A DNA stretch of 63,708 nucleotides, filler included, from Collodictyon triciliatum (GCA_043381765.1; 3 parts of 3 records of this genome joined end to end with filler, not necessarily neighbours in it), one strand, 5' to 3'; counted from the whole stretch's first letter, positions 3,919 through 45,500 are shown. Numbers and translations are program-made. Notes: generated from the sequence alone by a model not told the origin.

Positions 3919-6900
3919 ATGTATCTCGAGAGTCTCGGTTTGCCAAATGTTAAAAAAGTGCTCGACGGTATTGGAGTCTCCTCTTCTGACCTGATACCTA
4001 TGCTTTGCCATGAAATTGGTCGACAGAACATCATATCTGAGTGCACACCTCCTGAGAAAACCCGGTGCGAGAAGTGGGCCAGCTGCGCTGAATATTGGAC
4101 GAAAGAGTGCGGAATTAGAAATCCAACCTACATCGTTCTGCACGGCTTTAAGAATCTGGAAGAGCTGCTCCCACTGCGTGATAACCTCGAGCTGCTGAAG
4201 GTTGCCTCTGGAGAGGTTCATCGGTTGCATCTAAAGCTTGAAGAGCTTCTGCTAAAACATCCCGATGTTCCCGCACTGCCCCCACGCAAAGAACCTCTGC
4301 CTTGTTATGATGGTAATCTGGAAAAAAATCTTGAATATCTTCAAGGGGCTCAGTTTGTTGAGTTCATGGAGAAACTCCGAGACAGCTTTGGATGCCACTC
4401 GATTCGTGACGTTGCTTACCTGACACCCGAACAGTTTAACGAGCTTACACCTCTTGTTGATTTCTTTAAGAAGGATCAATTAACCGAATTCCAAAAGAGA
4501 ATGCGAGAATGGATCAAAGTGCTCGGAGATGAAGAAGATGCAGCTTACTTGGCAGCCGGGAATTATGATATCGAGACGCTGGCCAGTCATACTGATATCC
4601 TCTCCCTAGGACTCAACCTGGCGACAGCGTGCTACATACGCATGAAAGGTATTTCTGCACTTGAGGACGATTAGAAATCTGATAAATTATTCATGTTTTT
4701 TGTTTTGTTTTGCTCATGATTTCGTGTCTGAATAATAGCCAATTTTTTAATGATACCCAAATATAAATATTAGCTCCAAGAAAAGTTCCAAGTATTCTGA
4801 CACCTGATATATCGCCCCATTTCAAAGACTCAGAACACACTCTACAATCTTCAAATTCCCAAAGTGACCTGGAAACTTCACAAACAAATCCCCCAAATTC
4901 CACTGAAGTAGTCTCGTCAGAAGCCAAATTATATCTCCAAACACCTGAAGACACGCCCAAATCTAGCAATACTCCCAGTACTCGCAGCCTATCTGATAGG
5001 CGTGAAAATCTCTCTTCCATTCTACCTTCGCCACCAAATAGTCCAGATGGAAATATTGCAAATCCAACAACCATTCCAGCAGTAGTTGAAAGCAGTATAG
5101 TTGATACCAAAGATGTGGTAGTGATAGATTCGACGAATGGAAATCAACCAGTTTCCGTAATCGAGAATCCTCCAAACTCAACCTATTTTCCTGAAACCAA
5201 CTCTTCTACTCCCCCTTTATCATCTCACGACTTGAATACGAATCCTATCCTAGAAGAAAAACCATCAGATAGTGATATGGCAAGTCCAGAGACACACACC
5301 ATGACCTACAGAGAGCTTGCTATGAATGTTTTCAGTCTTGAGAGGAGCCCAGTTACCATAAAAGAAGAATATACATATCAGGAATTGAACCATCTTCCCA
5401 ACAAACAATATTATGTAGTTCCTGTGCTTCCACCTCGAAATAGGAAAGCAATATCTCTGTCAGATGTTAAGGACAGAAATTATGAATTCAGCCCTCTCGA
5501 AGTGATGGGACGTTGCCATCTCATGAGCGACACAGTAGTAGTTCCAGAAAAATTAAGTCAAGTTGAGCTAAAGCCTTTCTCTACGAAAATAACACTCAAG
5601 GAGGCATGGAAATCATTCAAAGAACAGTATCCGCCCCAAAGATACCATAATATTAAGGTGCATTCTCGAGAAATTACTCTTCATCTCCAGATAGAGGGAG
5701 AATTAGACCCAAGTCACGATTTATATATCATGGGACACCTGGCAGGTAACTTTGAGAAATATCTAGTACGTGGCCAAAATGACTATCATGAAGAGTCAAA
5801 AACTTATCAGATAAAAATTTCTTGCTCTGAAAACGATATCATGGCAAGAGAATTGGTACTTTGGGTTTTCATGATTGATAAGTCGAAAAATATCCTGTCG
5901 CATGCGCTCATAATAGGGGAAAAAGCGGACTTGAGCAATTTCTTTGTGATATTCAACCTGAAATCAAAGTCTATTCCATTACTTTGTATGGAACAAGAAG
6001 GGCTGGTAATAAGAAACGAAACAGATAGTATGAAAGCAGGATTCCGCTTTATGCTAGGGTCTTTGAAAGGGGTCATTCATGTGAATCCAGATGAATGCCT
6101 CGACCTCCTGACCAGACTGGGGTTGTATTCCACAAAGAATCTTTTTCACATGATAATTTTTTTCCAGGAGTCAAAAGACTGGAAAGAAATAACATCCAAA
6201 CTGCTGGCACTCGAAAAATTGGTTCCAAACAACTTAAGTTCTATTTGTGCCTTTGAAATACCTTCTGAATTTCAAGTCAAGTTTATGAAACTCCTTCAAA
6301 AGCAATTAATGGGCCTTGAGGAATCAAAATCAAGTACCAGGGGAGTGCCCACGTATATTATCAATACAGAGGCAGAAATGTCAAACTATTACAACATTTA
6401 CCTTTCATTGTTGGTGAAAACTGATGGAGAGCCATTGGAACCTTTTATTTTAATTAATAAACTTGCACGTGTTCAACTCAAATTGAGATATTCGACAAAC
6501 CAGGATATATACGCGAATATTCAACCACGCAGCCACGAAACCGTCGAACTGAGTTGCCGACTCATCCACTCTGAATTAAGCGAAAAGAAATCAGACTTTT
6601 CAATTTTGGACTCTGCCATATGCGTTGATGAAATATTGCGAAGGTGCTATTCTATTGAAGGTAATTGTTTCATCATATTGTTTGTTTTTTTTAAAAAAAA
6701 AAATCCATCATTTTTATTCTTCATCGACAATTAGTATTAATTTCTTTATCCACTAAACAAAGATTTCATCTGCAATAGATGAATTTTGCATCATGGGAAC
6801 CATCTTTGAATGTTCGAGTGAAAGTGTAAGAGAAGATAATGTGTTAAATAACATCAAAGATTCCATAAAAAAGAGGATGAAGGAAAGTTCAACCAGCGAA

Positions 6901-12900: not shown

Positions 12901-15900
12901 TTGGTTCTCTTGGATTGAAGGAGGAAATCGATTATATAAAGTCTATGATTTCAGAGATTAACAACAAGGTGCCAATTGTTCATTTAATTCATAAAATCAA
13001 TTATGTCTGATTTTTAAGTATCACCTTTTTCAATTTATTGAAAATTACTTGCTTTGCTTTTTTTTTTTTTTCATAGGATATCGAAATGAACACAAACAGT
13101 GGCATTGTATCAAAAAAGGGGATATTGACTGATGAGAAACATCGCCTTTTTTGTGAACTGATTGCGAGGTCTCAGTCATTCATGAGAAGGGAGCTTGGAG
13201 ACCCATCATGTGTTAGTTTGCGAGATGTCAAAAGGTGCATCCATCTGGAGAGATGGTTTTACAGCATGTCAAGCTTCAGGCTTGAGCATTATCGCGATAT
13301 ATTTTTAACCAATCCCAGGATTACAGAAGAAGCAAGGACTTCTGACCTGAACAAAGTGATTCAAGAGGACAGCCATTGTCTATTTTTCCATCAAGAAGAG
13401 CTTTCTCCCCGAGAAATATCAATGTGCTTGGCGCTGTGCCTCTGCTATTATTTTAGACTAAGGTTCCATACTTTGTTTATGAAAAATACGTGCATCATGA
13501 TTTTGAAAAGAGGAGCGATCAAATAGTATTAAGCTCTGGGAAGTAAAATAAAATATTACTTTTTTCGGTTTTGTTCAAAAATGGCTTCTTTTTTTTTTTT
13601 TTTAACTATTTTACTTAATTCTGAAATGTTTAAAAAAGCACTCGCCAGTCGAACTCCGAACTATTTCCAGGAGGAACACAGCGAGAACGATACTTGAATT
13701 ACGTCTTGTTTGACCAGAATTACCTGATTGGCAGGCAATTTAGAGTTAAATGTTTTGATGGGATAAAGAGTGTCTATTTCATGAAATATTCGAGATTTAA
13801 TGATGTATTGAATTATGAAAAAGAACTATTTATGAAGAATATGGAATTTGGAGATGAGATTATATCAAAGAACGAAGCCCTGACCGAAAACATTTTCGTG
13901 ATGGCGGTATCCATTTTCAATAAGCTCCCAGCCTTGGTAATAAGTCGTCTCTTAATAGACTTGCTATACCCCCAATTTTGATGTTGGGAATACTACATAT
14001 AATTTTGGTCACTATTCATCCAGGTTGTTAGCAAGCCAGGAACATCGAAATCATATGCTGTGAGCATCTTGAAAAAGACTTTCTCCTCTGGTCAGAGAAC
14101 TCCGTTCTTTTCTAGATTCCCTAAGCTCGAATTCAAATCGATGCAGTGCTCACCGTTGACTAAGCCCGCAGGTTTCTAATCGTCATTTTAGCTGAATAAT
14201 TGGAGAAATTCGATGAATATGCATTCATTAATAACTGCTCGATCTGCTTGTCCTAATTCAAATTGATAATATGTGCAGAAATCAAGGCGGCACACGATAA
14301 AGCCCTTGAAGAAGAGAAAAGGAGAAACGAGCAAGAAAGCGGCAAGCAACAGAATAGCGAAACCCAGCCGCAGAAAGAAAGTGTCTCAGGAGAACCTGAA
14401 GCAAAGAGAATCCTATCCATTCAATATGTTCTGCTCTTGGATGAGGTTGGTTTGGCGGAGCAGAGCCCACACCTGCCGCTGAAAGTGCTGCATCAACTAT
14501 TCGAACCTCCAAAACTCTCTGTCATTGGCATTTCAAACTGGAGGCTGGATGCATCAAAGTCAAACCGCATGGTATTAAATCAATATCATGTCATATTTTT
14601 GTTTGAGGAAGTTAACGATACATGCGTTATTGACGTATAATTTTTCGAATTCTAAATGAAAAGCTACTGCTGAACCGACAAGACCCCCTTCTCGAAGAGT
14701 TATGTAAAACTGCCAATGACATCATGGAGCCTCTATATAAAGAAGACCCGCAGTACAATAATCTGGGAGTTACCCGACCACAATGGTTGATGCCAAGAGA
14801 TCCAAGAATTAGATTCAGGGTAATAAATTCAATTACCCGGGTCTATGAGGATATCTATCAAAACCACCAACCGCTAGCAAGAGAATTTGGCCATTTGCGC
14901 ACTGGCAGAGAGAATAACAGAAAGGAGGATTACTATGGTCAGTAAATTTCATACAAGCTCAGGATATTGAAGAAAATTATTAAATTATTAACTTTCGATT
15001 AACTGTGAAAACAAACATAACCTCGTATTGCATAGGTATGCGTGACTTTTACGACCTTATCAAATGCGTCGGTAAGAGGCAAGATATTGAGCTATCCATC
15101 ACCCTAACCGAAGCAATGTCCCGGAGCTTGAATGGCTATACAAGACAAGCTTTGGTGGAAAAGAATAGAGTTTGTCGCTCAAGACTTGGGGTACCTCTTG
15201 TACCTCCAAAGTCTACTCTGGAGTTGATGTCTCTTAACTTATCCGACCCTGAATCCCGCCACTTGATGATAATAACAGAAAATAATTTTGCCCTTCAATT
15301 CATGCTTGACAATCAAATCATCGCGTATGAAGAGACGATGATATTTTACTGTGCTGATTACTCGGATAGCCGAGACGAGCGCAACACCGCAAAACTGTTG
15401 AACAGCATTCGGTATTGCATGGAAAACGGCAACCTTATAGTAATGGTCGGCCAAAATCACGTTTACGAGCTCCTCTACGATTTATTGAATCGGGTATGTG
15501 CACGTTTTATTCTAGTTTTACGAATCTAAGCTTAATTTAGAGAATAATGACTTTCATGTGCTGCTCTTTATCACTTTTTATCATTTCTTTACTCGATTAT
15601 AGGCTGTTTTTTTGGGTCATGTTTAACTCATATCACACATTTTATCATTTTTTTTTTTTTTTGCACCAGCACTACACCAAAATTGGAGAAAGGACCCTCT
15701 GTCACGTTCCTTTGGGGCTCTATGCGGATGACATGTATGTAGTTCATCCGGAGTTTAAATGTATCGTCGTTGCTACATCGGAAGAGGCCTACAGCCACCC
15801 ACCCCGAGGACTGCCTGCGCCATTTTTAAATCGCTTTGAAAAGCAATATCTTACTGTTGATGAAGTTTTGGAAGATGCCACTGACAAGACTACCCTGGAA

Positions 15901-17591
15901 AGGACAAAAGTTTGCTTTTGTTTATACATGATAGAACACATTTTGCTTGAGTTTTCTTTAAGTAGATATTTTATCATAATTCTTGCGTACTGAACACATT
16001 TTACGTCTCTGTCTTGGTATTTGCTTTATTGAAAACCAACAGGAATTGCTGAGCAAACTTCTTGAAAAGCCAGGAACCAACTTATCTGAGCAAGAGTTGT
16101 TCTCAACCGCTTTTGCTGCCTATCACGATTCCCTCATTTCCTCTGCGGTATTGAAGGCGAAATCAACAATTACGTCAAATGCCGTCGATGACTTGGTTGC
16201 AGAGACGTTCCGCCAGCTGCTTTGGACTTCGAAGCCTGAGTGGATAATGTCTCTAGTAGATGCTGAGGTGCCGATTGATTAGAGGATTGACATTCACTTA
16301 TTCATATTCCTCTACTTATTGATAAAGTGACTAAGTTTAAGGATATTTCTGATGATTTTTTTTTGGGAAAATCTTTATTATATCACTTCATGTTAATGAG
16401 AATAGCGTTAATATGGTGGTGATAACTAACGATAATTATTGTCGATAGGATGTGTGCGGAGTGAACCTTCAGAATGAGTACCTGAGCGAGCAGAATCATG
16501 TCAATCTCTCTGAATTTGTCGCCCATGCAAACAGATACGGGTGGAGTGACTCTAAAATCTCCGGATTCCCTGTGGGTCTTCATTTGTCTGTGTGGACTCA
16601 CGCCCGCTTCATCAGAAGTGACAGAGTTGAGGAAAAGTTGAAGGCTCATCTCGATGTAGAAGAGGTCCTCTACTTGAATCTTTACCAAATTACATCAGAG
16701 AGAGAACTGGAGAACCATCTGATTCGCTTTTTTGAAGAGGAGAGCGAAGGCTATTTAATTGTCTCCTTCACGGATGGTCTGTGCGGTGTGGATCGCCTGA
16801 ACCACTTTACGTTCCTGTACACCCGCATGCAGTTTGAATTTCGCTCCCACCGCTTCCCAAAGCATGTGATTCTCATCCACCATCTGTTGAGAGAAAAGAC
16901 CGGCATGATTCGCAACCAAGAAGAAGCGTTCCGCAATTTGCATCGCCAGTCAACGGACCATGTCAAACCCCTCTTTGACAGACTCTGGCGCATCGTGTAC
17001 CTGGACAATATTTTCGAGGACGAGAGAAACTTCCCTGCAAATGCAGTCGACCTTCTCCAACCAGACTTTTTTGCAACTCATCGACCTGACCCAGTGTTTC
17101 AGAAGGATCTTGTCCTCCGCGCTTTGAGCAAGCATGAGAACATATTTTCTCGACTTCATGATATCATTAAAGTGGGCGACTTGACAGCGCTGGCAAAAGA
17201 TGAAAGAGAATTTGCTCAAGACATGCTGAAACGCCTGTTCCAGAGAATATACGAGGGAATGGAAAGAAGAGGAGCGTTTGCCGCCCCGGCAACTTTCTGG
17301 TCGGAGGCACTTATCACAAGACAAGAATCGCAATCGGGCCCCGTCTCCGTCATGCGCTATGTCGACAAGTACATCACCCTCACCAAAGCCTTCGAAGAGT
17401 CATGCGCCGACTGGGTTGCAGACGAGTTGTGCTTGTTTTTGGAGTCAGCAGGGGCTGGACTGGGTTATTTTGAGCATCTTGGCATTCGTTCTGGCGGCAA
17501 CTCCCGGTATGTGTCGAAATCTCCAGAGGATGACAAAGAGCTTCTCAAAACCATCATCTATTACATCCCGCAGGAGAAACCAAGCGCTTAA
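3919..17591 (+). CDS. RNF213-like: RNF213/mysterin-like giant dynein-related AAA+ ATPase with N-terminal SAM-like repeats; multi-exon; no E3/RING/RZ module visible
   Basis: RNF213 motifs occur in order across exons: SKQPSIGKS; FIITKDNLLKLINIYFRIKSQLPLIIM|GETGCGKT (Walker A, from 12140); HGG; FFDEIN (Walker B); IGACNPYR; YVIPPSM..WDFGSL; VSLRDVKRC; CYYFRL; NEALTENIFVM; SKPGTSKS; QCSPLT; LLDEVGLAEQSPHLPLKVLH; GISNWRLDASKSNR; GMRDFYDLIK; SRHLMIITEN; LYDLLN.HY; VHPEFKCIVV; PAPFLNRFEKQYL. Exon 3919-4648 splices in frame to 4773. Stop at 17591, AATAAA near 17665. Confidence 0.9.
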
Positions 17592-17701
17592 AATCAACGA
17601 GCGCATGAGAGTCTGTTTGGGTCGTTCATTCGATACTCAGCTCCGAAGGCCCATCTAAAGGGCAAATAAAACAGCAAAGAAAAGGAAATACAAATTCGTT
17701 A

Positions 17702-17760
17702 TGTTAAAGCTTTTTTTTTCCTTTATTCGATTCAAAGTGTTATTGTGTTAAAGCTTTTTT
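17702..17760 (-). mobile_element. Ultra-short 5'-truncated LINE 3'-end insertion (copy A)
   Basis: T-tract + CCTTTATTCGATTCAAAGTG between direct repeats TGTTAAAGCTTTTTT (starting at 17702 and 17746). Confidence 0.8.
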
Positions 17761-17815
17761 CTTTTTCTTTTTCTTTTTCTTTTTCTTTTTCTTTTTCTTT
17801 TTCTTTTTCTTTTTC

Positions 17816-17847
<32 letters not shown>

Positions 17848-19191
17848 TTTCTTTTTCTTTTTCTTTTTCTTTTTCTTTTTCTTTTTCTTTTTCTTTTTCT
17901 TTTTTCGATTCAAAGTGTAGCGAAGTTATGCCATACAGAGGGGCGGATGGAGCGCATGGGAGAGAGCAAACGCGAGTAGGGGAAGACACTACCGTGGAGA
18001 GGGTAGCACTGGAAAGAAATCAGTGATAACAAGTTGGTCAGGTGGGCGTCCCAACTGCTTGATTGGTTACGTGGGTAGCAGGGGTTGGATATGCTGTGGG
18101 AGATATCTTACGACACATTCCCACATCTCTCTTCGCTTGCGGTCAGAGTAGCGAGGAATGCGGGCGTGTTTCAGCAGGCTGTTCAGGAAGCTGTATTGCA
18201 CGAGGCTTTCCAGCCTGGCTACATTGATTTCTCGTTTGGGTGAATCATTAATGCGAGAGAATGCACACACACTCCATAAGGCCCACAGCATATGTCCCCT
18301 TGTGACTGTCCAGAGTATTCTAGAGTCGTGGGTCATTTGATATTGTGCACCAAACAGGATGTCGTCATGCGCTGAGACGGTTGGGAGCATAATCAAGCTC
18401 AGAGAGCATCTTGTGGGTAGATTCTGTCACTTTTTGAGCAAGAGAGCACTTCACAATGCGTGTTCGGTAGAGTCGTCTCCACTATGACACATGGTGCAGT
18501 CTGGAGAGGTCGTTGCTGCATGGACTACACGCGCACCTATCCACTGTCCTGCATATATGTGTTGATTATCGTCACAGAGCCACATTCATGTACTTTCCAT
18601 GTTTGATTATTGGTTTTTTCCTTTATTCGATTCAAAGGTGTTTGATTATTGGTTAGGTGGTCAGGGCTCAGCCGTTTCTTGGAGACAGACGATGTCTGCG
18701 TGAGTGAAAAGAGCAGCGTTTACAGCCTCTTTTACTCTTTGGGTTCGTTAATCCCCTAAAGCTCCATATCAGAAGGTTAAACCCCATGGGTAATCTATTG
18801 GCTTTTGGAAGCATGAACCTCGGTGATTGACCCTCTCTGCTAGAACTGAGTTGCTTAGAGCAGGATGGTTTACTCGAGCTGTCCTTTATTTTTCGGTACA
18901 ATTATTACTCGTAATTCCAAGAGCATTTAATTCGTAGTGGATAGCTCCACATTATTATTTTTTGTATGGGTAAGCCTTATCTGCTATTTCCTCATTTATT
19001 AGGGAGAATCGATAGGATGTAGGCTCTTTGAGGACGCGTATCTCCACACGACAGTGTCTATCATGAACAAAGACGGGAGAGGGTATTTTCCCATTTTCTC
19101 CTTCTTTGTCAAATGCACCGAGTGTATCGCTCGTGCATAAGTATCCTTGTTGAACCCTACAATACCAAGAGTCTACTCTATCCACAAACAA
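17755..19191 (-). mobile_element. Decayed, internally deleted L1/Tx1-type non-LTR retrotransposon (LINE)
   Basis: Minus strand, 5'->3': ORF1-like remnant (KIPSPVFVHDRHCRVEIRVLKEP, 18955-19191); ORF2 start MGFNLLIWSFRGLTNP (ATG 18787), then after a frameshift THADIVCLQET (APE endonuclease motifs I/II, ~18673-18696); zf-RVT knuckle CTMCHSGDDSTEHA..(frameshift)..KCSLAQKV (~18430-18498); LWTVTRGHMLWALW C-terminus with stop at 18067; 3' UTR ending CACTTTGAATCGAA, then a (GAAAAA)n tail. No RT domain is present. Confidence 0.8.
18600..18654 (-). mobile_element. Ultra-short LINE 3'-end insertion (copy B), nested in the older LINE
   Basis: TTTTCCTTTATTCGATTCAAAGG between perfect 16-bp repeats TGTTTGATTATTGGTT (18600-18615, 18639-18654). 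Confidence 0.85.
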
Positions 19192-19621
19192 TTCATCTAC
19201 TTCGTGTATGACCCTAATTCTTGAATTATGATGGGGAAAAAAAAAGAAATGTGTAATGCATTCAGCTACATTTGATTACTCTATATTCACCAACTATTCA
19301 GCGCTACTATGCAGGTTATGATATAAAAAAAAAAAACGCTAAAATACTGATTTACGGAAACTCAAAAAACTCAAATCACCAAAGAATAATAGGTAAATGA
19401 TTTATGGTTTATTGATGAGTAGGCATTTGGATCGCTAAGACTTCTGGTTGTTGCTTTAAGTCTATGTGTCCAATGATTCTTTTTTCATTTTCATTTGTGT
19501 TGGTGGGTGACGCTCAACGTAATTTATTGTCTCAATTATTTTCCTCCTTCACCAAACTTTGTGCTGGGTAGGGATACTCTTTATCACGAAACTCTTCCAT
19601 GATTAGTAGAGCCTGTGGATA

Positions 19622-20090
19622 TTTTGGAACTTCATCGATAACATCGCCCCAGGAACCATATCTCAATATTTCAGTCTTGCTGCACGCCATTCCTTTTAAT
19701 TCCTGGAAGGCCCTCGCAGAGCCTTTTTGAATAAGTCTCTTGAGTCCTTGAAAGTTTTCTCCTATTCTGTAATATTTTGCCGCTTCGTTCCAGTCTTCAG
19801 CTACACCCCATCCGTTCTCATAGCACTCACCAATAATTGTATGAGAACTCTGGTGTTTCGGAACTTCATCAATAACATCGCCCCAGGAACCATGCCTCAA
19901 TATTTCAATCTTCCTGCACGCCATTTCTTGCAATTCCTGGAAGGCCCTCGTAGAACCTTTTTGAATAAGTCTCTTGAGTCCTTGAAAGTTTTCTCCTCTT
20001 CTGTAATATTTTGCCGCTTCGTTCCAGTCTTCAGCTACACCCCATCCGTTCTCATAGCACTCACCAACAATTGTGTGCGCGCTCTGGTGC
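19622..20090 (-). repeat. Near-identical 234-bp (78-aa) tandem duplication of a SEL1-like unit
   Basis: HQS.HTI.GECYENGWGVAEDWNEAAKYYR.GENFQGLKRLIQKGS.RAFQEL..MAC.K.EILR.GSWGDVIDEVPK occurs twice; nucleotide copies start near 19622 and 19856. Confidence 0.92.
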
Positions 20091-20713
20091 TTGTATAAGT
20101 GTTCTACATAACTTCCATCGTTATCATACCCACAAACTTTCAATTCAGATAGCTCAATCAGCATATCAAAAGCGTTCAAAGATCCTATTTGTGCCAGTTT
20201 TTGCAAGTCAATTAAGCTTTCTGCTTTTTTGTACCAACAAGCCGATTCATAAAGGTCTTTTCGGACACCCCACCCGTTTTGAAGGCATTCAGCTACCAGT
20301 TTCCAAGTGAACCGCACTGTGCTAGAGACAGAGTTAATATTGTCACTATTCAATTCTCCATCCATACTTTTACCTATGCTTTCTAAAATTGTAAAGGCTT
20401 TTCTGCTTCCCCTTTTTGCAGATAACAACAATTCCGTTGCTGATACAAAATCCTCGTTATAGGAAAGCACTCTCCATTTGTAATATTCATCCATGTCAAT
20501 CGGTGTTCCCCAACCATTTAAATAGCATTCCGATAGCAATTTGACTGTATGGGGAAATTTTGGTTCGATCCCAACTTTATGACCACCCTCTCCGTATGAG
20601 GGTAGTATTTGGCTAGCGAGTCCTTCCAGAGTATGCAATGCAGAGCTGTCCCCTTTTTGGGCCTTCGTCTTGATGGAATTCATATATTCTTCTTTGTCTC
20701 CAAGACCCGACAT

Positions 20714-20769
20714 AACTTTCCATCGAAGTGATCGAATAAAGGGAAAAAAAAAACTTTCCATCGAAGTGA
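20714..20769 (+). mobile_element. Ultra-short LINE 3'-end insertion (copy C) inside a coding exon
   Basis: TCGAATAAAGGG + A-tract between perfect 18-bp repeats AACTTTCCATCGAAGTGA (20714-20731, 20752-20769); net +38 bp; peptide SLRWKV appears in both ORFs. Confidence 0.9.
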
Positions 20770-23700
20770 ATCCTCTTCACTTGCTACCAAGCCCCAACCG
20801 TTTTCATAACATTCTGAGATGGCCCAACATGCTTGTGGGTACATGGTTTCAAACGATGGGACTTCACTCTCCGCTCCATATGAACATTTTACCACCTCTG
20901 ATAATTCTTTTAGTATGGAAAGAGCCAGGGTAGAACCTTTCTGGGCGTATGCTTTGAGCCCATCAATTTTTTCAATCACATCCTGTCCGTATATTATACC
21001 CCATTTTAAGCTCAATTCTTCACTTTTACAAACACCATACCCATGCAGGTAGCAATCAGACACAATAATTGCAGCTTTAGGGACTTGAAGACGCCTGTGA
21101 ATTTGTATCATTTTGTCACTGAACCCTTGGGTCATCGTCGCCAAAGAGTGTAGTATAGTAAAGGCATTTGAGCTTCCTAATTTTGCCAATCTTGCCAACT
21201 CTGGTATGTTCTGTACTTTTTTCAACCATTCTGCAGCCTCATCGATGTCATGTGCGACGCCCCATCCATTTTCGTAACATTCAGCAACCATGACCACAAG
21301 CTTCGGCTCTTTATACGTCAACCTATTACGATAATATTCATCTCCTTCTGTTTGGGTATTTGCTGCTCTCTGGAGCGCTTCAAATGCTTCTTGATAACCT
21401 TTCTGCATAAATGCTCTAATTCGGTCGAATTCATGGGCGTTAATAAGATTCTCCAGACACTTAACAGGGTCTTTAGCTGTTCCCCACCCGTTTTCGTAGC
21501 ATTCCGCGACTATGATCAAGAGCTCGTTAGCTTTTGAACTTGATTGATGTCTACCCCTTTCACTTAAAAGAACTGGTGCATTAATACTTGCTTCTAGAGC
21601 CTCAAAAGCATGCGAGTTTCCGTTGATGGCATGTTTTTTGATATCCTGGAACATACTTATTTCTTTCAAGCAGTCTATTGATTTTCTGATATCTGGAGTG
21701 ACGCTCCATCCTTTTTCGTAGCACTCGGCGAGGGCAATCAAAGCCTGTGGATGCTTAATTTTTTGACTACGAATTCTTTTGTAGTAATCGTAGTCGATGT
21801 CCCTCATTTCAGACAGTGAAATAAGAGCAGAGAATGCGCGTTCAGAACCCTTCGTGGCAAATTCCAACAAATCTTTCACATTAGCTGTGGTTTTCAAGGA
21901 GTCTATTAATTGGATATCAATATCACCACCACCCACTCGTAATTTCGTAAAGTAATCCCTCAAAATAACTGATACATTAGGGTATTTGGGTTTTTCTCCT
22001 ACCTTTGCAGAATATTTTATGATGTCTTCTTTCTCTTCCTCCATTTCTTTCAAGATGTTGTAAGCTTCCTTACATCCTTGGTATAAGCATTCTTTTAATT
22101 TGTTGATGTTAAGTGCCTTTCTATGACAGTCTAGAGATATTTTGGTATTTTTTTCAATGACCCATCCATGCTCGTAGCACTCAGCAAGTATTATCCAAGC
22201 TTTGGGATACCTAAATGTCGTTCCAATCTTTCTTCCGCTCTTTGTAACATCCTTTTTTAGCTCCGCTAATGTCTTCAATACATTGAAAGAATCTAATGAT
22301 CTATGCTTTTCTACTAGATTTCTTAGACCGTCTAGATCTTCGATTTCTTTCATCCAGTATGAGGCCTCTTTGAGATTGGTTTCTGTTCCCCACCCATTAA
22401 CTAAGCATTCTATTACAGTCTCGATTACAGGTTTGTTTGCATTAAAGTTGTCTTCAAAAACTGTCTGATTAGAGTTGTGGTCGATTTTTGCATGCGCTCT
22501 CAAAACAAGAAAGGCCTCTGACGAGCCTTTTTTTGCCAGTTCTTTCATTTGACCTAGATTTCCTGATTTTCCATACCACTCAACAGCTGATTTTAAGCAC
22601 AGATCAACTCCCCATCCATTCTCATAACATTCACCGATTAAATTTGCAACTTCTGGGCAATTTGAGCCTTTATCTTGCTTTTCTCCATATTGATCGATGT
22701 AGTGAGCATGATTTTCATACATTTTTTTCAATACATCCAAAGTATGTGTTGAACACATTTCGGCCAACCTTCTTAGATCATTTATGTTTTTAGCGTTACC
22801 ATACCATACTGCTGCTTGTTTGGGGCTCTTTTTTACTATCCATCCATTTTCATAACACCCCCCAATAGAATTGCATGCTTGTGGGTACTTGAACTCAACA
22901 TCTACCTCTTCTCCAAAGCTACAAACATTTACCTTTATGTCAGCGAAATCTTTCAACACATAGAATGCTTCCCTGGCGCCCTGGCTTGATAGTCTCTGCA
23001 ATTCTTTAAAATTTTCTGCCCTTCCAAACCATTCGGATGCTTTCTCCATATTCCTTTCGGTGGACCATCCATTTTCGTAGCATGAAGCCACAAATGACAT
23101 TACCTCTTTTTGAAGCTGTATTGTATCTTCGCAGCCCAATTTCATTTGTTGAAATGATTTCAGTTTCAGAAATGCGTATTCGTCCCAATCAGAAATCAAT
23201 TTCTCCAATTGCTGAACTTCTTTTCTTAGATGATCTAGTTGAAAACATGTAAGTGTTCCATGTTTACAATAATCAAGAAAGTTGTCATCAAAAGACACGC
23301 CCCCAATTGATAGTAGAATCATTTTATTGAAAAAGGTGAGGCCTGTAGTTTTTTTCAATTGTATGTTACCCCCTTGTATGTATTCATTTCGTCGGTCTGC
23401 TGTACATTTCTCAATTTCGATATCGTCAATTTGAGGTGCAACATCAGGATGTATATTTTTCGATTGTATCAAACGTATCTTGTAAACCCCCTCTTTTGAA
23501 GAAGTGAACTTGGTACGTAAAATGTCCCATTCAGAATCATTATCTAGGTTAGAAAGAACTGATCGATCAATGTCCTCTCTTTCGATGCACTGGAGGTGAC
23601 TGTAGAAAGAGAACTCCGTAATGTTATCTTTTTTAATACCAAATTTCACATCAAGTAAACATGATTCATTCAGATTGCAGTCGCCCATAAATGTCTTTGT

Positions 23701-24917
23701 TAGAGTTACGCCTTGCAAGTTAGCTTGTGTAAGGTCCGCTCCTTCTAGGATTGAGTTCGATAGGTTCGCACTTGGGACTTTGATGCGTGATAAATCCATT
23801 TGAGCAAAAGATATATTCATGAAATTCAGTATCGTCATCGCCTTAGCAGCAGATGTAGATCTACTTTCATCCATTTTAGAGGAGAAAAGTATTTCAAGAA
23901 GGACTTTAACTGTATTCTTGAATGTGCGGTCCTTAAGAGAGTACTCCTCCCCTGTGACCTCAGTTATAAATGTGTAAACGGAGGTGAATTCATAAGGCTC
24001 CTTTTTTATTCCCATTTTCATTGAATAATAAGATATGCATTCGCAAGAGAGCAGGGTCGTTTCATGATCCCATTCCAGATTCCTTGAAAATCTATCTCGC
24101 ATCTCCAACCAAAACAAGAAGCCTTCCTCGTAAAGGCTGTGTATCCCGCAGTAAGAGTTAATTTTATCGCAGATCAACCATACTCTCTTATCAACATAGG
24201 AAGAATCATCGGCATACTGCACTAACTCTCCTTTGTATAATTGAATGATAGAAGAGTGCGCCTTCTTCTCGTTCAGGTGGGAGAATATTTTTTCTCTGTC
24301 AAATTTGTTTAAGGTCATACAAGTCTTTGATTTTTTGCGTATATCAGCAGCCTCCTGGATGTAATTCAGGGCAATGGTAATCCTATTAACATTAGAATCT
24401 CAGTTGTGTGTGTCTGTTTGGTGGAATGATTCTGATTACCCGAATCGAGTTTTTTATTTTGAAGAAAAAAATGTGTGTTTTAATTTACCGATCTTCTCCG
24501 ATGCAAATGACTCCTAAATGCTCGAGAATTCGAGCTACGTGCTCATCAAATTCGCCTACTACGTTCTTTGTCTCAGAAATCAACTCTGTATATATTGCAG
24601 TTGCACAATCGAAGCTGAATTTTTTTTAAAAAAAATAATCATGGATTTATTCTAGGTTTCTGTCATAGTAATTTTTGATAAATTTACATAGTTTAAGAAA
24701 AAAATTCATGAGCAACCTCATATTTGAAAGTATTATGATAATTTAATGATTTACTTGTTTTGGATTAAATGCATTTTTGCTAACAAGAAATAAGAATCTA
24801 TCGTCCGTTGGTCACAAATTCCATATGCAGTAAGTCGAATTCTCAAACTTTTATTCAAGATGTCCATAGAATATTTTTATCTGATCAAAGGATATGGTTT
24901 ATATTGAAATAATAAAC

Positions 24918-26659: not shown

Positions 26660-26759
26660 NNNNNNNNNNNNNNNNNNNNNNNNNNNNNNNNNNNNNNNNN
26701 NNNTTAATTAATTAANNNNNNNNNNNNNNNNNNNNNNNNNNNNNNNNNNNNNNNNNNNN
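26660..26759. other. Assembly gap with artificial six-frame-stop spacer (N..TTAATTAATTAA..N)
   Basis: 100-nt N block with TTAATTAATTAA at 26704-26715; identical structure at 53357. Confidence 0.95.
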
Positions 26760-26914
26760 TTTTGTTTTTTGTTTTTTGTTTTTTGTTTTTTGTTTTTTGT
26801 TTTTTGTTTTTTGTTTTTTGTTTTTTGTTTTTTGTTTTTTGTTTTTTGTTTTTTTAATCGTTTGGTTTGTTTTAGCTCCATTCTTTTTATCAACAACAAA
26901 TACTTTGATAGGTT

Positions 26915-29077
26915 ATGAGGGAAGGACCGAGCAGAAACCAAGAAAGCACCCTATTATTTCTTGGAAAGAATACCATCAAGTTAATCAATGAAAGAGATTC
27001 TACATGCAGAATTTTTTTCGGGAAGAAATTGGAACAGATATGCAACAAGTACATGCGATATTTCTTGGCACCTTCTTTTTTACTATGGTTGGTTGCTGTG
27101 GGATTATATGCTAAGGAATTGAATCGTGGTAGTGAAAATATAAATTATGTCTTGTATGCCACTTCCATGCTTCCGATATGCATGATGGCTTCGATATTAC
27201 TTTTGTTCATAAAGCCAGTGTTCATCGACTGCTTCAAGTTTTTCGATACCCTCTATATCCTTACAAATATTTTGGTTAACACTGCACTCCTGGGCTATGT
27301 AACAAAATCTCAATTATCTAATACAGTTACAATAATATTTATGTATCTGTTAAGTTATTTAAATGCACTATTGATGGACTCCGGAAACAGTAACTTCAAA
27401 CACAGTGATGTTATGTTTAATTCTTTAACAAATAAAGGCATAATGGCGGAGTTGAGTAATATTCAATCGAGTATATCTGATAATCAAGAAAGTATTGCTA
27501 GAAACATTTGCCTTAACAGCGGTAACCTAATATCGGCTTTTTCGACTTCTAAGCTTATCAAAGAAAAAGGCATTACAGTTAAAAAAATTCTCAGAACGGG
27601 TGGCGTTTTTTACAAAGTACTTTTTAATTTAATCGCAATCACCATAGGGCTTCTGATGCAACTATATATTTTCTTTATGACTAGATTCGCATGGGCTTCA
27701 TACAATAATGTCATGATATTAGATCATTCACTGGTAAGACTATCTGTCGCAGAAGTTCTTGCATTTACATCATTCAATACAATAACATTTCTTGGGAAAA
27801 GGATATATTTCTTGATACTCAACCCATTTAAACTTCGATGCTATTGTCTTGGAATGATTCGAATTCCTTTGGTACCTGAATGGGATGTAATTATTGCTAA
27901 TTACAAAGAGCTTAAACGAGGAAAACTCTTTTGCAGGACAAATATAATTCCATTGTGTGGTCAGGGCCATGGTAATTCAATTAATCCAAGAATTTCACCA
28001 AACACTTCATCCATATCAGACTACTTTAAAACCTCAACGTTCACCCATTCAGCTATCTATTTGTCGGAGGATTTTCTATCATCAAATCGTATTTCAGCTG
28101 TTTTTCCATGCTCGGAATCAAATATAGAGTTTTCGGATATCCCACCACTCAAGCGGTTCATGGTGTGCATGACCTCATCCATTCAAAACGTTTTTCGGGT
28201 TTTCATCAAATTCAGCGATGCGATTTCTTTAGTGTCGCTTGTCCTGTGCCTGGTTGAGCTCACCCAAACAAATAACGCCCTTTCAAAGGCATCATTTTAT
28301 TTGGGGACCTTCTCGACAGTTATACAACTTTTAATGATGCTTGGGTTTTCTGGAAAGCAAATTTTTTACTCGGTCACTTTTTTTGAGAACATATTCGTTC
28401 TGGGCAACATTATGGTTCTTTACGTAACCATGGCCGATATGTTTGAGTGGAATGGTAACAGGTCTTATGTAACTGCGCCATTTCTCTGCATTTTTCTCGT
28501 TCGATCGATCTTATTTGATTCGTTTACTGTCAGCTTCACTCGCTTCAGGCGGTATCTTCTTAAATGTGTTGTAGTCAACTCTGATCTGGAGGCTGAGATG
28601 CCTTTTACTTGCTATGTTTTGTGTTTATTAAACAAGCATAAGAAAACAACCTCAAACATGAACTCTTCTGACAACCAAGAGCTTCTCTGGCCGAATGAGG
28701 ATATTCAAATGACATGGAAGGAGAGACGAGCATACATGAAAATATTTGGATACTTTCACATATCTTTGTGCTTTTTCAGCCCAGTGCTTCTTCTTATTCT
28801 GCTAATAATTTGCCAAGGCTCACTTTTCACTAATGTCAACGAAAGGACGACCGATATGGGGTTAGTTCAAGGAAAGAATGTCTCTATATTTAAAGGGGCA
28901 CTTTTCAACCTTGCAATTTTTTTCTTCAAAAGACTGTATCAGTTTATCGATAACCCGCTGCTATCTTCCACAATAACTGAGCCATACTTTCAATATCCTC
29001 TTACACGATCTGTGGTATCTGAGATAATCTCACAGCAGAAAACTATTTTAACGCCTTCACAGCCCAATCACGCGTAG
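26915..29077 (+). CDS. Uncharacterised multi-pass membrane protein (720 aa, one uninterrupted ORF, two-fold internal repeat)
   Basis: Long open frame with many hydrophobic segments; the halves share motifs (FKFFDTLYILTNILV / VTFFENIFVLGNIMV; LLMDS / ILFDS; FNTITFLGKRIYFLILNP / FNLAIFFFKRLYQFIDNP). An acceptor-like TAG just before the ATG means a further 5' exon is possible. Confidence 0.8.
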   Translation: MREGPSRNQESTLLFLGKNTIKLINERDSTCRIFFGKKLEQICNKYMRYFLAPSFLLWLVAVGLYAKELNRGSENINYVLYATSMLPICMMASILLLFIKPVFIDCFKFFDTLYILTNILVNTALLGYVTKSQLSNTVTIIFMYLLSYLNALLMDSGNSNFKHSDVMFNSLTNKGIMAELSNIQSSISDNQESIARNICLNSGNLISAFSTSKLIKEKGITVKKILRTGGVFYKVLFNLIAITIGLLMQLYIFFMTRFAWASYNNVMILDHSLVRLSVAEVLAFTSFNTITFLGKRIYFLILNPFKLRCYCLGMIRIPLVPEWDVIIANYKELKRGKLFCRTNIIPLCGQGHGNSINPRISPNTSSISDYFKTSTFTHSAIYLSEDFLSSNRISAVFPCSESNIEFSDIPPLKRFMVCMTSSIQNVFRVFIKFSDAISLVSLVLCLVELTQTNNALSKASFYLGTFSTVIQLLMMLGFSGKQIFYSVTFFENIFVLGNIMVLYVTMADMFEWNGNRSYVTAPFLCIFLVRSILFDSFTVSFTRFRRYLLKCVVVNSDLEAEMPFTCYVLCLLNKHKKTTSNMNSSDNQELLWPNEDIQMTWKERRAYMKIFGYFHISLCFFSPVLLLILLIICQGSLFTNVNERTTDMGLVQGKNVSIFKGALFNLAIFFFKRLYQFIDNPLLSSTITEPYFQYPLTRSVVSEIISQQKTILTPSQPNHA

Positions 29078-35869: not shown

Positions 35870-36877
35870 CCGCACACGGCACTGGTATTATCGGTGGTCG
35901 TGCACACTAATTAAATAGAATAAAATAAAAACATCACCCATTAATCAAGGGAAAAAAGAAGCTGAAGAAATTTGCTGTGCATTAGTTTTGCCGACAATTA
36001 TCCATTAATTTTTAAGTGGTTCTTAGTTACTCCCTGGTGTTTGGTGGAAGTGCCATCGCACTTAATGCAGACATGAGAAAAGGTGGTGTGTACCAGGGCA
36101 ATCACAAAGTCTCAATCTTTCGAGGGCACGACGGTGTAAAGCTTCGTAATCTCTATATATGTGTTAACAGTGTTAATATCACTATTATTAGTATATTTGT
36201 TGCTTAATCAGGTTACTATTGCGGTATAAATGAAATTCTAATATAAATTCCACATATTAATAATATTCAATCCAACCCATATTTAATCATACTAATTGAA
36301 AAGCCTCATTTATTTATCAAAAATTGTGTATCTTTCTGCACACACATGAACATTCTAAGAAACGTGATTAAAACGATTGTTCCACGCAGGTGCGTTCCGT
36401 AGAACGAAATGCACCACAGCCTAAAGTCGATTCACCTGAATAAGAGAACCCACGAGTCCATGTTTTCAACAGTCGGATGCGCGAATAAAGCTGGAGCAGC
36501 AGATCCGTTCATCCTTGCAGCATTGACATACGTGTTGTGATCACCAAACGCTGGCTTCATCAAACGCCAGTCGCAACTTCACAAGCAGAGCCCCACAAAA
36601 TGCCAACAAACAGAGACAAGAAAATCTCATGCCAAGCCACCCTAACCTGCAATTAACTCGCTCAACACACACGCCCATAGTACCGACTGCATATACACAT
36701 ATTTATCGAGAAAAAAAAAAACAAGGAAAATAAAATAAAATATTTATCAAGAAAAAGCATACACCCCTCTCACAAACTCCTTGTGTATTCAGCTCCTCAG
36801 AAGGACAACTTTTTGCCCGCCTTCCTTACCTGCCCAGCCACCCCGACCGAAAGGAAGCCTCTCTCCATACCCAGCAA

Positions 36878-38664
36878 ATGCTTGTCGAAACATTCCGCGT
36901 CAACTCGCCCAACGTCCAATACACCCCCTCCGAAATCGTCTCGCAGTACGCATACGACCAGACCGAAGCCGCAATCGAGGCCGATGGAAGCCTGACCGTC
37001 ACGCCCGTCTCAAACCACTTTGAATTCCGCACACAGCGCAATGTCCCAAAGACCGGCCTCATGATCGTCGGGCTTGGCGGCAACAACGGCACCACTTTGA
37101 CAGCAGGCATCATCGCAAACCGCGAGTGAGTACCGCATCCTTCCCCACCCCACCCTATCATACCATATTTGCACATCGATCCTTTCCACAAAAGGCATGA
37201 CTAAGCAAACGCCATCCCCTCAACCCGCGTCATTTCGCGCGCTGTCATGAAAACAGAGGGATATGCTGGCGCACCAAGGAAGGTGTCCGCCAGCCAAACT
37301 ACTTTGGGTCTGTGACGCAGGCATCGACCGTGCGCTTGGCCGAGAACTATTTCTTGCCCTTCAACAAGCTGCTGCCCATGGTGAATCCAAACGACCTTGT
37401 GATTGGAGGGTGGGACATCTCGTCGCTGGACCTTGCCCAGGCCATGGAGCGGGCCCGCGTCTTGGACTACGACCTGCAGCGCCAGTTGGTACCGTGGATG
37501 CAGAGCATGAAGCCGCTGCCGGCTGTCTACTACCCGGACTTTATTGCGGCAAACCAGGCGGACCGCGCAGACAACGTGCTTGGCGGGTCAAAGAAGGAGC
37601 ATGTGGCGCAGCTGCGCAAGGACATCCGCGAGTTCAAGGAGAAGAATCAGCTGGACAAGGTGATTGTGTTGTGGAGCGCAAACACCGAGCGCTTCTGTGA
37701 AGTGGCCCAAGGACTCAACGACACGGCTGCCAATCTGCTGAGCTCGATAGACTCTGGAGCCGCCGAGGTTTCCCCGTCCACGGTCTACGCTGTCGCATCC
37801 ATCCTGGAGGGTTGCACATTCATCAACGGGTCGCCCCAGAATACGCTTGTGCCAGGCGTTGTGGAGCTTGCTCTGCAGCACAAGGTCTTTGTGGGCGGCG
37901 ATGACTTCAAGACGGGCCAGACCAAGTTCAAGAGCGCGCTGGTCGAGTTCCTTGTGGGTGCAGGCATCAAGCCCGTCGCAATCACGTCCTACAACCATCT
38001 TGGAAACAATGACGGCAAAAACCTGTCGTCCCATCTGCAGTTCCGCTCCAAGGAGATCTCAAAGTCCAATGTTGTCGATGACATGGTCGCCTCCAACCCT
38101 ATTCTCTATGCCCCGGGCGAGCACCCTGACCACACTGTCGTCATCAAGTACGTGCCTTATGTTGCAGATTCCAAGCGCGCCATGGATGAGTATGTCTCGG
38201 AGATTTTCATGGGTGGCATTAACACCATCGCCCTTCACAACACGTGCGAAGACTCACTCCTCGCCACGCCTATCATGCTGGACCTTGTCCTCGTTGCCGA
38301 GTTGGCCTCCCGCATCTCCTTCAAGACAAGTGCATATAGCTGCTACATATCACAACATTCTCCCCAATAATACGCTACCTTGAATGTTTTGTGTTGTGAG
38401 GGTTTCCAGACATGGCATGGTAGTCAATACTCACTCTATGATTAATACGCTGCAGATGGCGCCGCAGAGCCCGAGTCCTTCCATTCAGTCCTCTCCATCC
38501 TCAGCTACTGGCTCAAGGCCCCAGTCGTTCCGGACGGCACTCCCGTTGTCAATGCGCTGTCCAAGCAGAGAGCCTGTCTCGAAAACATCTTCCGTGCGTG
38601 TGTAGGTTTGCCCCCAGAAAACTACATGACCCTTGAGCACAAGATTGTCCGCAAGCGCAGTTAA
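36878..38664 (+). CDS. INO1: Myo-inositol-1-phosphate synthase (3 exons)
   Basis: [103 protein letters not shown]; introns ~37126-37257 and ~38330-38455; TAA at 38662-38664. Confidence 0.97.
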
Positions 38665-42585: not shown

Positions 42586-45500
42586 CAGTAAGCAAGTTCC
42601 AGAGAGCTTCTTCAAGAATGATATTTGGAAAAACAAACGCATATCCAAGTGGTGAAAAGAGTGACATATAAGATACATTTGTTTATTTTTCAATCCAAAT
42701 CTAAATTAAAATAATACCAAAGGAGGGGGTCTTCATTAATGTTTTTCAAATGGGGAACATTCTTCTTTTTCTTCTCTTCCTACGGTAGTTACATGTGAAA
42801 ATCATTGATTTCTCCCATGATTGGCGATATGGACTAAATTCAACTAAAAATGAGACAAAAAAAACCTGCTCTATTCTGGCCTCATTCTGCTCGCGCTCCT
42901 TTCGGGCTTCGTCGAGCTTTGTTTGCCAAGATTTACTCTGATTCTCCATCATCCTATTAGTTACTTGTTAATGACACGACACAAAGGACATTTTTCTTTT
43001 CTGTAGATTACTTTTGATTTTCGCTCAGAATCGACTGCATTTCTTCAAGTTTCAGTCTAACTGTAATATTTAGAAGTGACGCGATGTTCTTAAAAAAAAT
43101 AGCACGTCTATGAGATTTGGTATAGTTAAGCTGATGTTAATGGGAGTGTAGAACATACGCTCTTCACTCTCGGCATCCGTCTTTCCTTTTTTACCACTTT
43201 CACCACCCTCATCTTCATCATCATCTTCATCCTTTGACGCGGGTCTTCCAGACTTTAAATCCTTAATTTGTGACAGCAATCGAGCGTTTTCTGCCTTCAG
43301 CTCTTGGACAAGAACTTCCATAGGGTCAACATTCACCTATTTATGCATATTTAGATTGATAAATTACCAAGCTTGCTATTACATCAATAGTCTTTTCAAA
43401 ACAAAAGAAAAGTATTCGTTGCATACAATAGCTTTATTCTTGATTTGCTTGGCTCTGTCGGCATATCTAGAGTTAAGATTTTCATGAAGTTCAGTAATGT
43501 GAAAATAATCAAAGATTCATAAAAAAAAGATCAAGTATTAAAACTTGGGTAAAGTATGATTTAAACCTCAGTGTCGAGAGGGTCTCTTCATAGTTAATAT
43601 CTGCTGGAGACAATGCAGCAATCATGATGGTTTTACTGAGCACATACAAATGTAAGCAAAATGACACATGATTGAAGATGCTATATAAAAGGAGTGAAAT
43701 TAGAACATGCCTGTTTCCTCCCAAGGCATCTTGGAGAATCTGAGTTAGCTTTGAATCGCGATAGGGAACAAGGATTTTCTTCTTAGGGTTATTGGCCTTT
43801 TCTACAAATGATGTAATCCGATATGATGCCTTGCACAAATGGGGGGTCTATAAGATTGGAAGAACAAACCTGCCAGCGCTGTAATAACGTTGCCAAGCAT
43901 AGTCAAACTCAAGTTAATAGCTGCGCCCTCTTTAAGACGGTCGCCGGTTGCTCCAGTACTTTCAGCACGCTCACTTCCTGATTCACGTGATTTTAATTTT
44001 CCAGGGGTTAAAGTTCCACATCTGCTTCATTTGTGTCAAAGTGCTATTCCTAACATTCTATCACTTTTTAAACGTTCATAGTTACCAGCCAGATCCACAA
44101 GATTAATCTTGCTGACCGTTTCTTTATCTTGACCAGGGCCTTTCCCGTTCTTTTCCACTTGAGTGAAAGTGATCGCCTATTTTTCGTTCGGGTATTACTT
44201 TTATCTCACAGCAACCAATTATACAAGAAAAGCATCCCGTACCACAACCGTATGAGCGCGAGAGCTAGTTGAGTTCATTTGTGTTGATGCCACCGTTCTA
44301 TTGAAAAGAGAACCATATTCATATTCATACAACCAGTTATATTCATCAAAAACAAAACAACAACAAATTATTCAGCACCGTAATTGATTTGAGAGAATGT
44401 AAACACACAGTTCAATGATCATTTAATAGACTGATAAAACAACCTGTTATGTGTTCCAGCTTCCATCCATTTTTCGATCTCTCGGTAGCTGTTGACGGGC
44501 ACGTCGCTCAACCCAACAACTTGAACACCTAACTGTGGGTGTTGTCTCACCTTCAGACCTATTGGCATGATAATTTTTACACAGTTCTTAATGAGAACAT
44601 CTTAGTCTGTGTGATAAACAAAAAGAAAAAAAAAAGGATATACAAGACATCCAATGGGCACAGTAAATATATGGCAAGTGAGTGCTTCCTTATTATTTTA
44701 AGAAGCAGACTGTATGTATACCTCCTTTGGGATTCTTATCCATAGGAATTAGCAAATCGCGAACTTGCTCATTGTAAATCTCAAGCATTTGAAGAGAAAC
44801 ATGAAACACCTATAATTTATATATTTTCCATGGGGGTTTATAGATAAAGATCAGAATATTTTCCAGACATTGTCTTTATATGTTAAAAAAACATCCAAGT
44901 ATGCTTCATTTTTATCATTACAAGGGAGGTACTGGTGGACGAGGCGATGTATTTGAATATTTCGTCACAAGAAATAGGGACAATTCCCTTATTAACACCT
45001 ATTAGATAGAGACAGTCATGCGCTGATGCCTCGTATTTAATCAAAACATTACTTTTCTAAGGTCAAGTAAATGTATTATCTAGGTGGTGTGTTATACTTC
45101 TTTTATATTCACAGACCATATCCGACCATAGAATAGCTTTTCCCTGAGCCAGTCTGCCCATATGCAAAAAGACTGCAATTATAACCTATTCAAGAATGAA
45201 TAAGTCCAGAGAGATGTAAATTGGACGTTTCTTGGAATGATTTTTTTTCGAAGGAAATACGTTCTTCAAAGAGTGGTATCAAAATCAATTTCTTTAGTGT
45301 AAACATAGATGAACAACAATATTGTGCAGGAGTATTAGAAACCTTTGAACGCGTTATTTAGCACATCACGACCAAGTTCATCAAAGACTTTCTTTTGATC
45401 GGCATACTTTGGAACTGACGGTGTCATAAGCCCTATTTCAATTCATTTCGATGCATTATCACAAGAGAAGAAGGAAATAAAGAGGCAGGACCATCGGGAG

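Follow-up and report, generated by a model that had tools for sequence, protein, structure and literature searches.

A gene of a diphylleid-like protist that probably encodes an RNF213-family AAA protein without the ligase half

RNF213 (mysterin) is known in human as an immune and Moyamoya-disease protein. According to the excerpted text of PMC7311170, mouse RNF213 consists of an N-arm (residues 1–1290), a linker (1291–1774), an AAA core (1775–3405), a hinge (3406–3588), an E3 module (3589–4926, RING at 3940–3999) and then a C-terminal domain, and the E3 scaffold of 3589–4926 is divided into an E3-back, an E3-shell and an E3-core. A plus-strand gene in Collodictyon triciliatum (GCA_043381765.1), a freshwater protist, raises the question of whether an RNF213-type ring can stand without its ligase. 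A sequence-only reading of the 63,708-nt stretch analysed here (the window) had placed at 3919–17591 an RNF213-like AAA giant that appeared to lack the whole E3 module. In our analysis, this locus is probably a gene of 21 exons that is still intact in its diphylleid-like (CRuMs) protist host, encoding an RNF213-family protein of about 3,759 residues in which the AAA core is complete and the ligase half has been lost, so that the ring would work without ubiquitylation of the RNF213 type.

The window is eukaryotic DNA with multi-exon genes and about 38% GC, and its plus strand carries a chain of open frames at 3.9–17.6 kb. We built a gene model from frame-keeping GT-AG sites, guided by tblastn alignments of the closest relative, P0001 of Diphylleia rotans. 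The resulting 21 exons (3919–17591) join to 11,280 nt, or 3,759 codons with a single terminal stop and none internal. The 20 introns were all GT-AG and 85–181 nt long (mean 120), with a GC content of 28% compared with 42% for the exons. At 14 junctions, residues of P0001 were carried across the splice, as in LPLIIM/GETGCGKT, KEDYYG/MRDFY and LYDLLNR/HYTK (the slash marks the junction). Junctions 1–3 and those at 12968, 13638 and 16267 were placed by splice signals alone or had near-equivalent alternatives. Because exon 1 has no homologue, the model is least certain at the start codon and at the exon 1 junction. The features of the gene and its 3' flank are as follows.

3919–4648, plus strand: exon 1, residues 1–243, starting with the earliest ATG in the open frame 3916–4674; donor AAG/GTATTT
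4774–6660, plus strand: exon 2, residues 244–872, Ser/Pro/Thr-rich in its initial part, within the open frame 4767–6734; no Pfam match
6779–7545, plus strand: exon 3, residues 873–1128; donor ACT/GTAAGT
7635–9143, plus strand: exon 4, residues 1129–1631, where collinear similarity to Diphylleia P0001 starts (blastp, tblastn)
9268–9558, plus strand: exon 5, residues 1632–1728; junction GHPHYQ/AHSEV agrees with the P0001 alignment
9693–10835, plus strand: exon 6, residues 1729–2109, with the start of the AAA core and an AAA2-type P-loop (...IGKS)
10947–11284, plus strand: exon 7, residues 2110–2221, placed by tblastn and splice sites
11412–12042, plus strand: exon 8, residues 2222–2432; its junction LPLIIM/GETGCGKT agrees with P0001
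12140–12224, plus strand: exon 9, carrying Walker A of AAA3 (GETGCGKT, 12140–12163)
12310–12357, plus strand: exon 10, residues 2461–2476, placed by tblastn and splice sites
12454–12537, plus strand: exon 11, carrying Walker B of AAA3 (FFDE, 12492–12503)
12667–12968, plus strand: exon 12, residues 2505–2605, with the conserved ACNPYR; donor picked among three similar candidates
13077–13462, plus strand: exon 13, residues 2606–2733, placed by tblastn and splice sites
13639–13936, plus strand: exon 14, residues 2734–2833; acceptor less certain
14024–14171, plus strand: exon 15, carrying the variant Walker A of AAA4 (SKPGTSKS, 14030–14053)
14279–14571, plus strand: exon 16, carrying Walker B of AAA4 (LLDE, 14434–14445) and GISNW
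14664–14937, plus strand: exon 17, residues 2981–3071; junction SNRM/LLLNRQDP, against NRMLVLNRPDP in P0001
15036–15493, plus strand: exon 18, residues 3072–3224, in the open reading frame (ORF) 14984–15529 that matched RNF213 chains of the PDB
15670–15909, plus strand: exon 19, with FLNRFEK at 15823–15843 (residue 3276)
16043–16267, plus strand: exon 20, residues 3305–3379; donor at 16256 or 16268, the frame being kept either way
16449–17024, plus strand: first 192 codons of the last exon, which complete the AAA core and share homology with relatives as far as W..V.LD
17025–17591, plus strand: orphan tail of the last exon, 188 codons and TAA (17589–17591), at the position of the 183-residue hinge of RNF213
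17665–17670, plus strand: AATAAA, 74 nt past the stop, a possible polyadenylation signal
17746–17915, no strand: (CTTTT)n-type microsatellite with a copy of an 18-nt dispersed motif, directly 3' of the gene

The exon scan at E≤1 gave a single weak SAM-like Pfam match in exon 1 (E 0.029), which lies below the cut-off and was disregarded.

Membership of the product in the RNF213 family, as the sequence-only reading had proposed, was far beyond chance. The ORF 14984–15529 alone matched the RNF213 chains 6tax, 7oik, 8s24 and others in the PDB (phmmer, best E 6.4e-9). In blastp with the spliced model, residues 1856–3405 aligned with Mus pahari RNF213 1775–3256 at E 2e-97, and residues 1352–3568 aligned with P0001 1148–3203 at 31% identity. 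The former alignment starts at mouse residue 1775, which is also where the AAA core begins. By profile alignment, residues 3276–3571 of the model corresponded to Mus pahari RNF213 3122–3402, and homology ended at residue 3571. The model thus holds a dynein-like core of six AAA units in a single chain, homologous throughout (1856–3571 against mouse 1775–3402). With single exons, the Pfam scan gave no match at E≤0.01. In phmmer searches of the PDB, exon 4 matched nothing, exon 6 matched RNF213 at E 0.26 only and exon 8 matched only a bacterioferritin at E>0.3. A search for homologous proteins with one exon, covering proteins of up to 2,000 aa, found none.

The five motifs that had been read from the sequence lie on the plus strand in the order given there: GETGCGKT (12140), FFDE (12492), SKPGTSKS (14030), LLDE (14434) and FLNRFEK (15823). 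They were assigned to AAA units from the excerpted main text of PMC7311170 and from the alignment to relatives, by which Walker A and Walker B fall in AAA3 (GETGCGKT/FFDE) and in AAA4 (SKPGTSKS/LLDE). We compared them with 25 relatives. In the AAA3 Walker A motif, seven of the eight positions held the residue found in most or all relatives, with G, E, G, C, G and K invariant; the model also has the D, E and N of the AAA3 Walker B motif, invariant in 25/25. In FLNRFEK, N, R, E and K were likewise invariant in 25/25. Invariant residues were retained at AAA3 Walker A and B, ACNPYR, AAA4 Walker B, GISNW and NR.EK. The description of the Walker motifs as intact therefore held for both AAA3 motifs and for AAA4 Walker B, whereas it was overstated for AAA4 Walker A, where the first P-loop residue is Ser in the model and Gly in 25/25 relatives, with the Lys and the Ser/Thr retained. 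The first Walker A motif stands at model residue 2433; we take its position in human RNF213 to be near 2420, which would make the N-terminal parts similar in length.

Where, then, does the protein end? The last open frame (16449–17591) closes with TAA, and the 21-exon model runs for 483 residues past the start of FLNRFEK, in agreement with the "about 500" codons and the following AATAAA of the sequence-only reading. A C-terminal profile of 1,931 positions was made from 67 non-redundant relatives cut at the FLNRFEK-type motif. Only its positions 1–276 matched the model (E 2e-38), covering residues 3276–3571, that is, up to the end of AAA6. This end point equals Mus pahari RNF213 residue 3402, against 3405 for the end of the mouse AAA core in the excerpted text of PMC7311170. 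In a search of 1.84 billion representative proteins, the last exon had two matches, of which one was P0001 (3020–3203, equal to exon residues 3–189) and the other a 170-aa fragment.

The remaining 188 residues form a tail without a match to the C-terminal profile or to a hinge profile made separately from 66 relatives. In hmmsearch the hinge profile matched the AAA6 end motif only, and hhalign of the tail gave a probability below 1%. Against the full C-terminal alignment, hhalign of the tail gave a best probability of 0.8%, indicating no C-terminal domain, and the tail had no Pfam match. With this lack of similarity of any kind, we rejected an internal deletion that retained the C-terminal domain as the tail. 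The tail contains 2 Cys and 4 His, which are too few for either zinc finger. Other comparisons of the last exon gave chance-level Get3 matches only (phmmer, PDB) or similarities at noise level in the ESM Atlas (0.86 of the exon to bacterial GTPase clusters, 0.79 of the tail to DUF3684 clusters). A global MAFFT alignment with 19 full-length relatives scattered the exon across the alignment and was not used.

The tail is real coding sequence with the gene's own codon usage. Its in-frame codon-usage score was 0.171 bits/codon, compared with a mean of 0.212 (sd 0.045, minimum 0.125) for windows of the same size elsewhere in the gene, and its other two frames scored −0.135 and −0.339 bits/codon. 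None of 20,000 shuffles of the tail was free of stops.

The absence of the ligase module was examined over the whole 63.7-kb window. When every ORF of at least 25 aa in six frames was searched with the 1,931-position profile, there was no true match past profile position 276. Positions 277–1886 gave one match, at 49 kb, where an unrelated TRIM-like gene has a generic RING (E 0.005), and a match of positions 1887–1930 to the AAA4 Walker B exon (E 0.0002) was taken as an alignment artefact. The tblastn search with 121 relatives at E≤1e-3 gave 12 further matches, all at 49,046–49,195 on the minus strand, in the RING of the same RING-NHL gene. Within the model, the RING pattern was absent, whereas the same pattern detected the RING of Mus pahari RNF213 at 3938. 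For the RZ-type zinc finger (PF20173), the exons gave no Pfam match, a loose RZ pattern was absent and the six-frame profile search was negative. The protein ends at residue 3759 with no E3 scaffold. On the plus strand, a codon-usage score trained on the gene was zero or below from about 17.5 kb to 20.7 kb; the minus strand was positive from 19.5 kb. Both the missing RING and RZ Cys/His patterns and the missing E3 module were thus borne out, the latter within one window. Because the Diphylleia relatives also have no RING, the RING does not define the wider family.

The RING-NHL gene has a TRIM-NHL-like arrangement, here in a non-animal protist. It consists of a C3HC4 RING ORF and an NHL-repeat beta-propeller ORF in series (46728–49264, minus strand); 30 kb and several other genes separate it from the RNF213-like gene.

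The DNA past the stop had been read as derived from a long interspersed element (LINE), and this did not stand. It holds instead the microsatellite, a short dispersed repeat and a convergent gene, whose long minus-strand frames at 19532–24399 (adjoining ORFs of 414 and 1,239 aa) encode many Sel1 repeats and a pentapeptide-repeat stretch, not reverse transcriptase. It was this gene that had been mistaken for a LINE. In the ORFs at 17.9–19.3 kb, no Pfam family was found at E≤1 save one meaningless match at E 0.32. Long, pyrimidine-rich CTTTT/CTTTCT-type microsatellites occur on both flanks of the gene (3450–3800 and 17746–17915). The 18-nt motif CCTTTATTCGATTCAAAG (up to 2 mismatches) has six copies in the window, where none is expected (17720, 17898, 18620, 24955 on the minus strand, 33203, and 34505 on the minus strand), and probably represents the terminal part of a short interspersed element.

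Long low-complexity repeats of this kind could mislead an assembler, and the true transcript might run on to E3 exons that are missing from the contig or misplaced in it. We regard this as very unlikely. The stop falls within unique sequence, with about 150 nt between it and the microsatellite downstream. Ns are absent from the vicinity of the gene; the window has N runs solely at 26660–26759 and 53357–53456, each with a pair of 44-N gaps. The introns of the gene are 85–181 nt long, whereas the next plus-strand ORF of any length starts only at 26912 and encodes an unrelated membrane protein, and the convergent gene fills 19.5–24.4 kb.

The break at the end of AAA6 also bears on a second possibility, namely that the gene is split and that the hinge, E3 scaffold, RZ finger and C-terminal domain are encoded by a separate gene whose product joins the ring as a non-covalent partner, leaving the machine complete. 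A viable split would fall exactly at such a domain boundary, the catalytic motifs are conserved as though the ring kept its usual role, and C-terminal-only models exist in databases (e.g., P0039, of 2,918 aa with 1,804 residues past the motif). However, no such gene was found by tblastn or the six-frame profile search, which took in 46 kb on the downstream side and 3.9 kb on the upstream side; in the excerpted text of PMC7311170, the C-terminal domain of RNF213 packs against the AAA core within one chain; and no split form was described in the literature found, judged by titles and the starts of abstracts. A split gene therefore appears distinctly unlikely to us.

The relatives indicate from what kind of protein the gene descends. 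A search with the P0001 core gave 178 relatives of 2,649–8,430 aa, ranging from vertebrate RNF213 and the RNF213-like proteins of molluscs, cnidarians, sponges and annelids to glomeromycete RZ-type and protist proteins. The motif segment was found in 115 of 121 proteins, and the chain continued for 1,669–3,036 residues past the FLNRFEK-type motif in 110 of these, for about 1,450 in two and for 163–261 in three. Of these last three, two bear the label partial and one is a gene model from Xenia. In a FastTree phylogeny of 1,130 core columns, the gene was sister to Diphylleia P0001 and P0003 (SH-like support 100), followed by P0006 (100), so that the comparison with protist RNF213-like proteins suggested earlier places it with full-length paralogues of a CRuMs protist. 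Since none of P0001, P0003 and P0006 is truncated, the simplest reading is that this lineage lost the C-terminal module. Judged from these sequences, the gene most likely descends from an ancestor of full length with an RZ finger and lost its ligase module secondarily, with about 1,500 C-terminal residues gone.

The neighbouring myo-inositol-1-phosphate synthase gene (36734–38370, plus strand) points to the same kind of host. Its exon had identities of 82% with Diphylleia rotans, 74% with Rigifila ramosa and about 72% with oomycetes, the next in order. With both genes matching Diphylleia rotans best, the non-animal origin proposed for the locus was supported. Parts of 11000–20500 occur in nine public sequencing runs (shares 0.05–0.21), seven of which are recorded as RNA and most of which are freshwater metatranscriptomes, but shares of this kind are evidence neither of expression nor of habitat. 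The synthase gene has 46–50% GC, compared with 31–38% in its surroundings.

Several observations weigh against an intact gene with a functional ring. The branch of the gene is 1.05 long, about double those of its sisters (0.44 and 0.54), and the tree has a limited sample, with 25 relatives left by redundancy filtering of the 72 that cover the core. Together with the Gly-to-Ser change in AAA4, the long branch fits relaxed constraint. Among the 1.84 billion representatives, the last exon had neither an orthologue nor a close relative, and a scan of JGI metagenome contigs for its relatives matched 110 pattern stretches and confirmed none; no truncated form in another species was found in either collection. 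A single-sequence AlphaFold2 model of the last exon had a pLDDT of 43, suggesting an alpha/beta part followed by helices, and was too poor for fold comparison. The copy may be a decaying remnant, in which a rearrangement or insertion after AAA6 left a young pseudogene or a non-functional truncated allele. The long branch, the altered AAA4 P-loop, the tail without relatives, the missing orthologue and the repeats that begin about 130 nt past the stop would all suit such an origin. Nevertheless, 3,759 codons in 21 exons contain no stop or frameshift, all remaining invariant motif residues are retained, and a random read-through would end within a few tens of codons, whereas the tail stays open for 188 with the codon preferences of the gene. 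We therefore judge a remnant to be unlikely, and an intact gene that has lost its ligase half to be the probable explanation.

Compared with vertebrate RNF213 (mouse PDB 6TAX and 7OIK; human 8S24), the protein shares the six-unit dynein-like AAA core with Walker A and B motifs in two active units. It differs in having no recognisable hinge and no E3 module, RZ finger or C-terminal domain, in an N-arm without sequence similarity to the vertebrate N-arm, and in its protist host. The Diphylleia rotans proteins (EukProt EP00002; P0001 of 4,817 aa, P0003 of 4,572 aa and P0006 of 5,536 aa) are closer, with 31% identity over about 2,200 residues, 43% identity on the kept core columns and the sister position in the tree. 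They are RING-less as well and belong to the same protist group, judged by the neighbouring inositol-phosphate synthase gene. In contrast to the 483 residues of the window protein, they continue for 1,855–1,895 residues past the FLNRFEK-type motif, and they carry an RZ-type finger (PF20173 precomputed in P0003 and P0006, weak in P0001 at E 7e-5).

The two isoforms of a Xenia sp. RNF213-like gene, X1 (XP_046855060.1, 2,852 aa; P0248) and X2 (XP_046855114.1, 2,829 aa; P0027), also stop soon past the motif, and therefore the ring-only form may not be unique. These models are not flagged as partial and end 249 residues past the motif. They come, however, from an octocoral and another branch of the family, and end short of the AAA6 end point of the window protein; they were predicted automatically on a scaffold of 10.5 Mb and may be split gene models. 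Short N-termini and the lack of a precomputed RZ domain are also seen in many cnidarian and metagenomic relatives with a length of about 3,900 aa. Single-chain AAA rings of the dynein and midasin type likewise have six non-equivalent AAA units of which only some are active (excerpted text of PMC7311170), but no sequence match to them was seen, all significant matches being to the RNF213 family. No paper on protist RNF213 homologues turned up in the literature, judged by titles and the starts of abstracts.

The other features of the window lie apart from the gene. A 721-aa open frame at 26912–29077 (plus strand), just downstream of the first N run, has hydrophobic stretches and is likely a multi-pass membrane protein with no Pfam family. 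The remainder comprises a kinesin motor fragment (43509–43847, minus strand), an FG-GAP repeat protein (49524–50768, plus strand), ankyrin repeats (54993–55406, plus strand) and an NBR1-type Ig-like domain at E 2e-5, below the Pfam cut-off (62602–63414, minus strand).

What could a ring without a ligase do? In mammals, ATP binding to the RNF213 AAA core switches the ligase on, and the core is described as an ATP-sensing switch (excerpted text of PMC12075652). Formation of the coat on pathogens needs the ATPase, whereas the RZ finger is needed only on bacteria (excerpted text of PMC11549300). The window protein has an N-terminal region that matches the RNF213 arm and linker in length, a complete six-unit ring in which the two active units keep their catalytic motifs, and an end 188 residues past the last AAA unit. 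By analogy, its ring would bind and hydrolyse ATP, and ubiquitin transfer by the RNF213 mechanism would be impossible. Its likeliest role would be that of an ATP-dependent scaffold, acting alone or joining and modulating cooperative assemblies of full-length paralogues. The proposal that the locus is an immunity module, its product being an ATP-gated sensor or a scaffold that signals through another effector, may hold by this same analogy with mammalian RNF213.

More tentatively, and with the odds clearly against it, arm and ring may form an autonomous unit, such that a paralogue that has shed its ligase but retained the catalytic motifs of its ATPase would assemble as an ATP-dependent partner together with full-length, RZ-bearing paralogues on target surfaces and tune, cap or seed their coats. 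If so, target recognition and cooperative assembly would reside in the arm and ring, with ubiquitylation as a detachable output, and there would be a likeness to the helper/decoy pairs among other immune ATPases.

The interest of the locus would be modest if the copy were a decaying remnant or half of a split gene. The gene adds to the evidence that the RNF213 family had already diversified in protists far from animals. A natural protein in which the ring and arm persist, catalytic residues included, but the ligase is missing would be a separation-of-function form of RNF213, and it could reveal the ring's own work, be it assembly, target binding or mechanical work.

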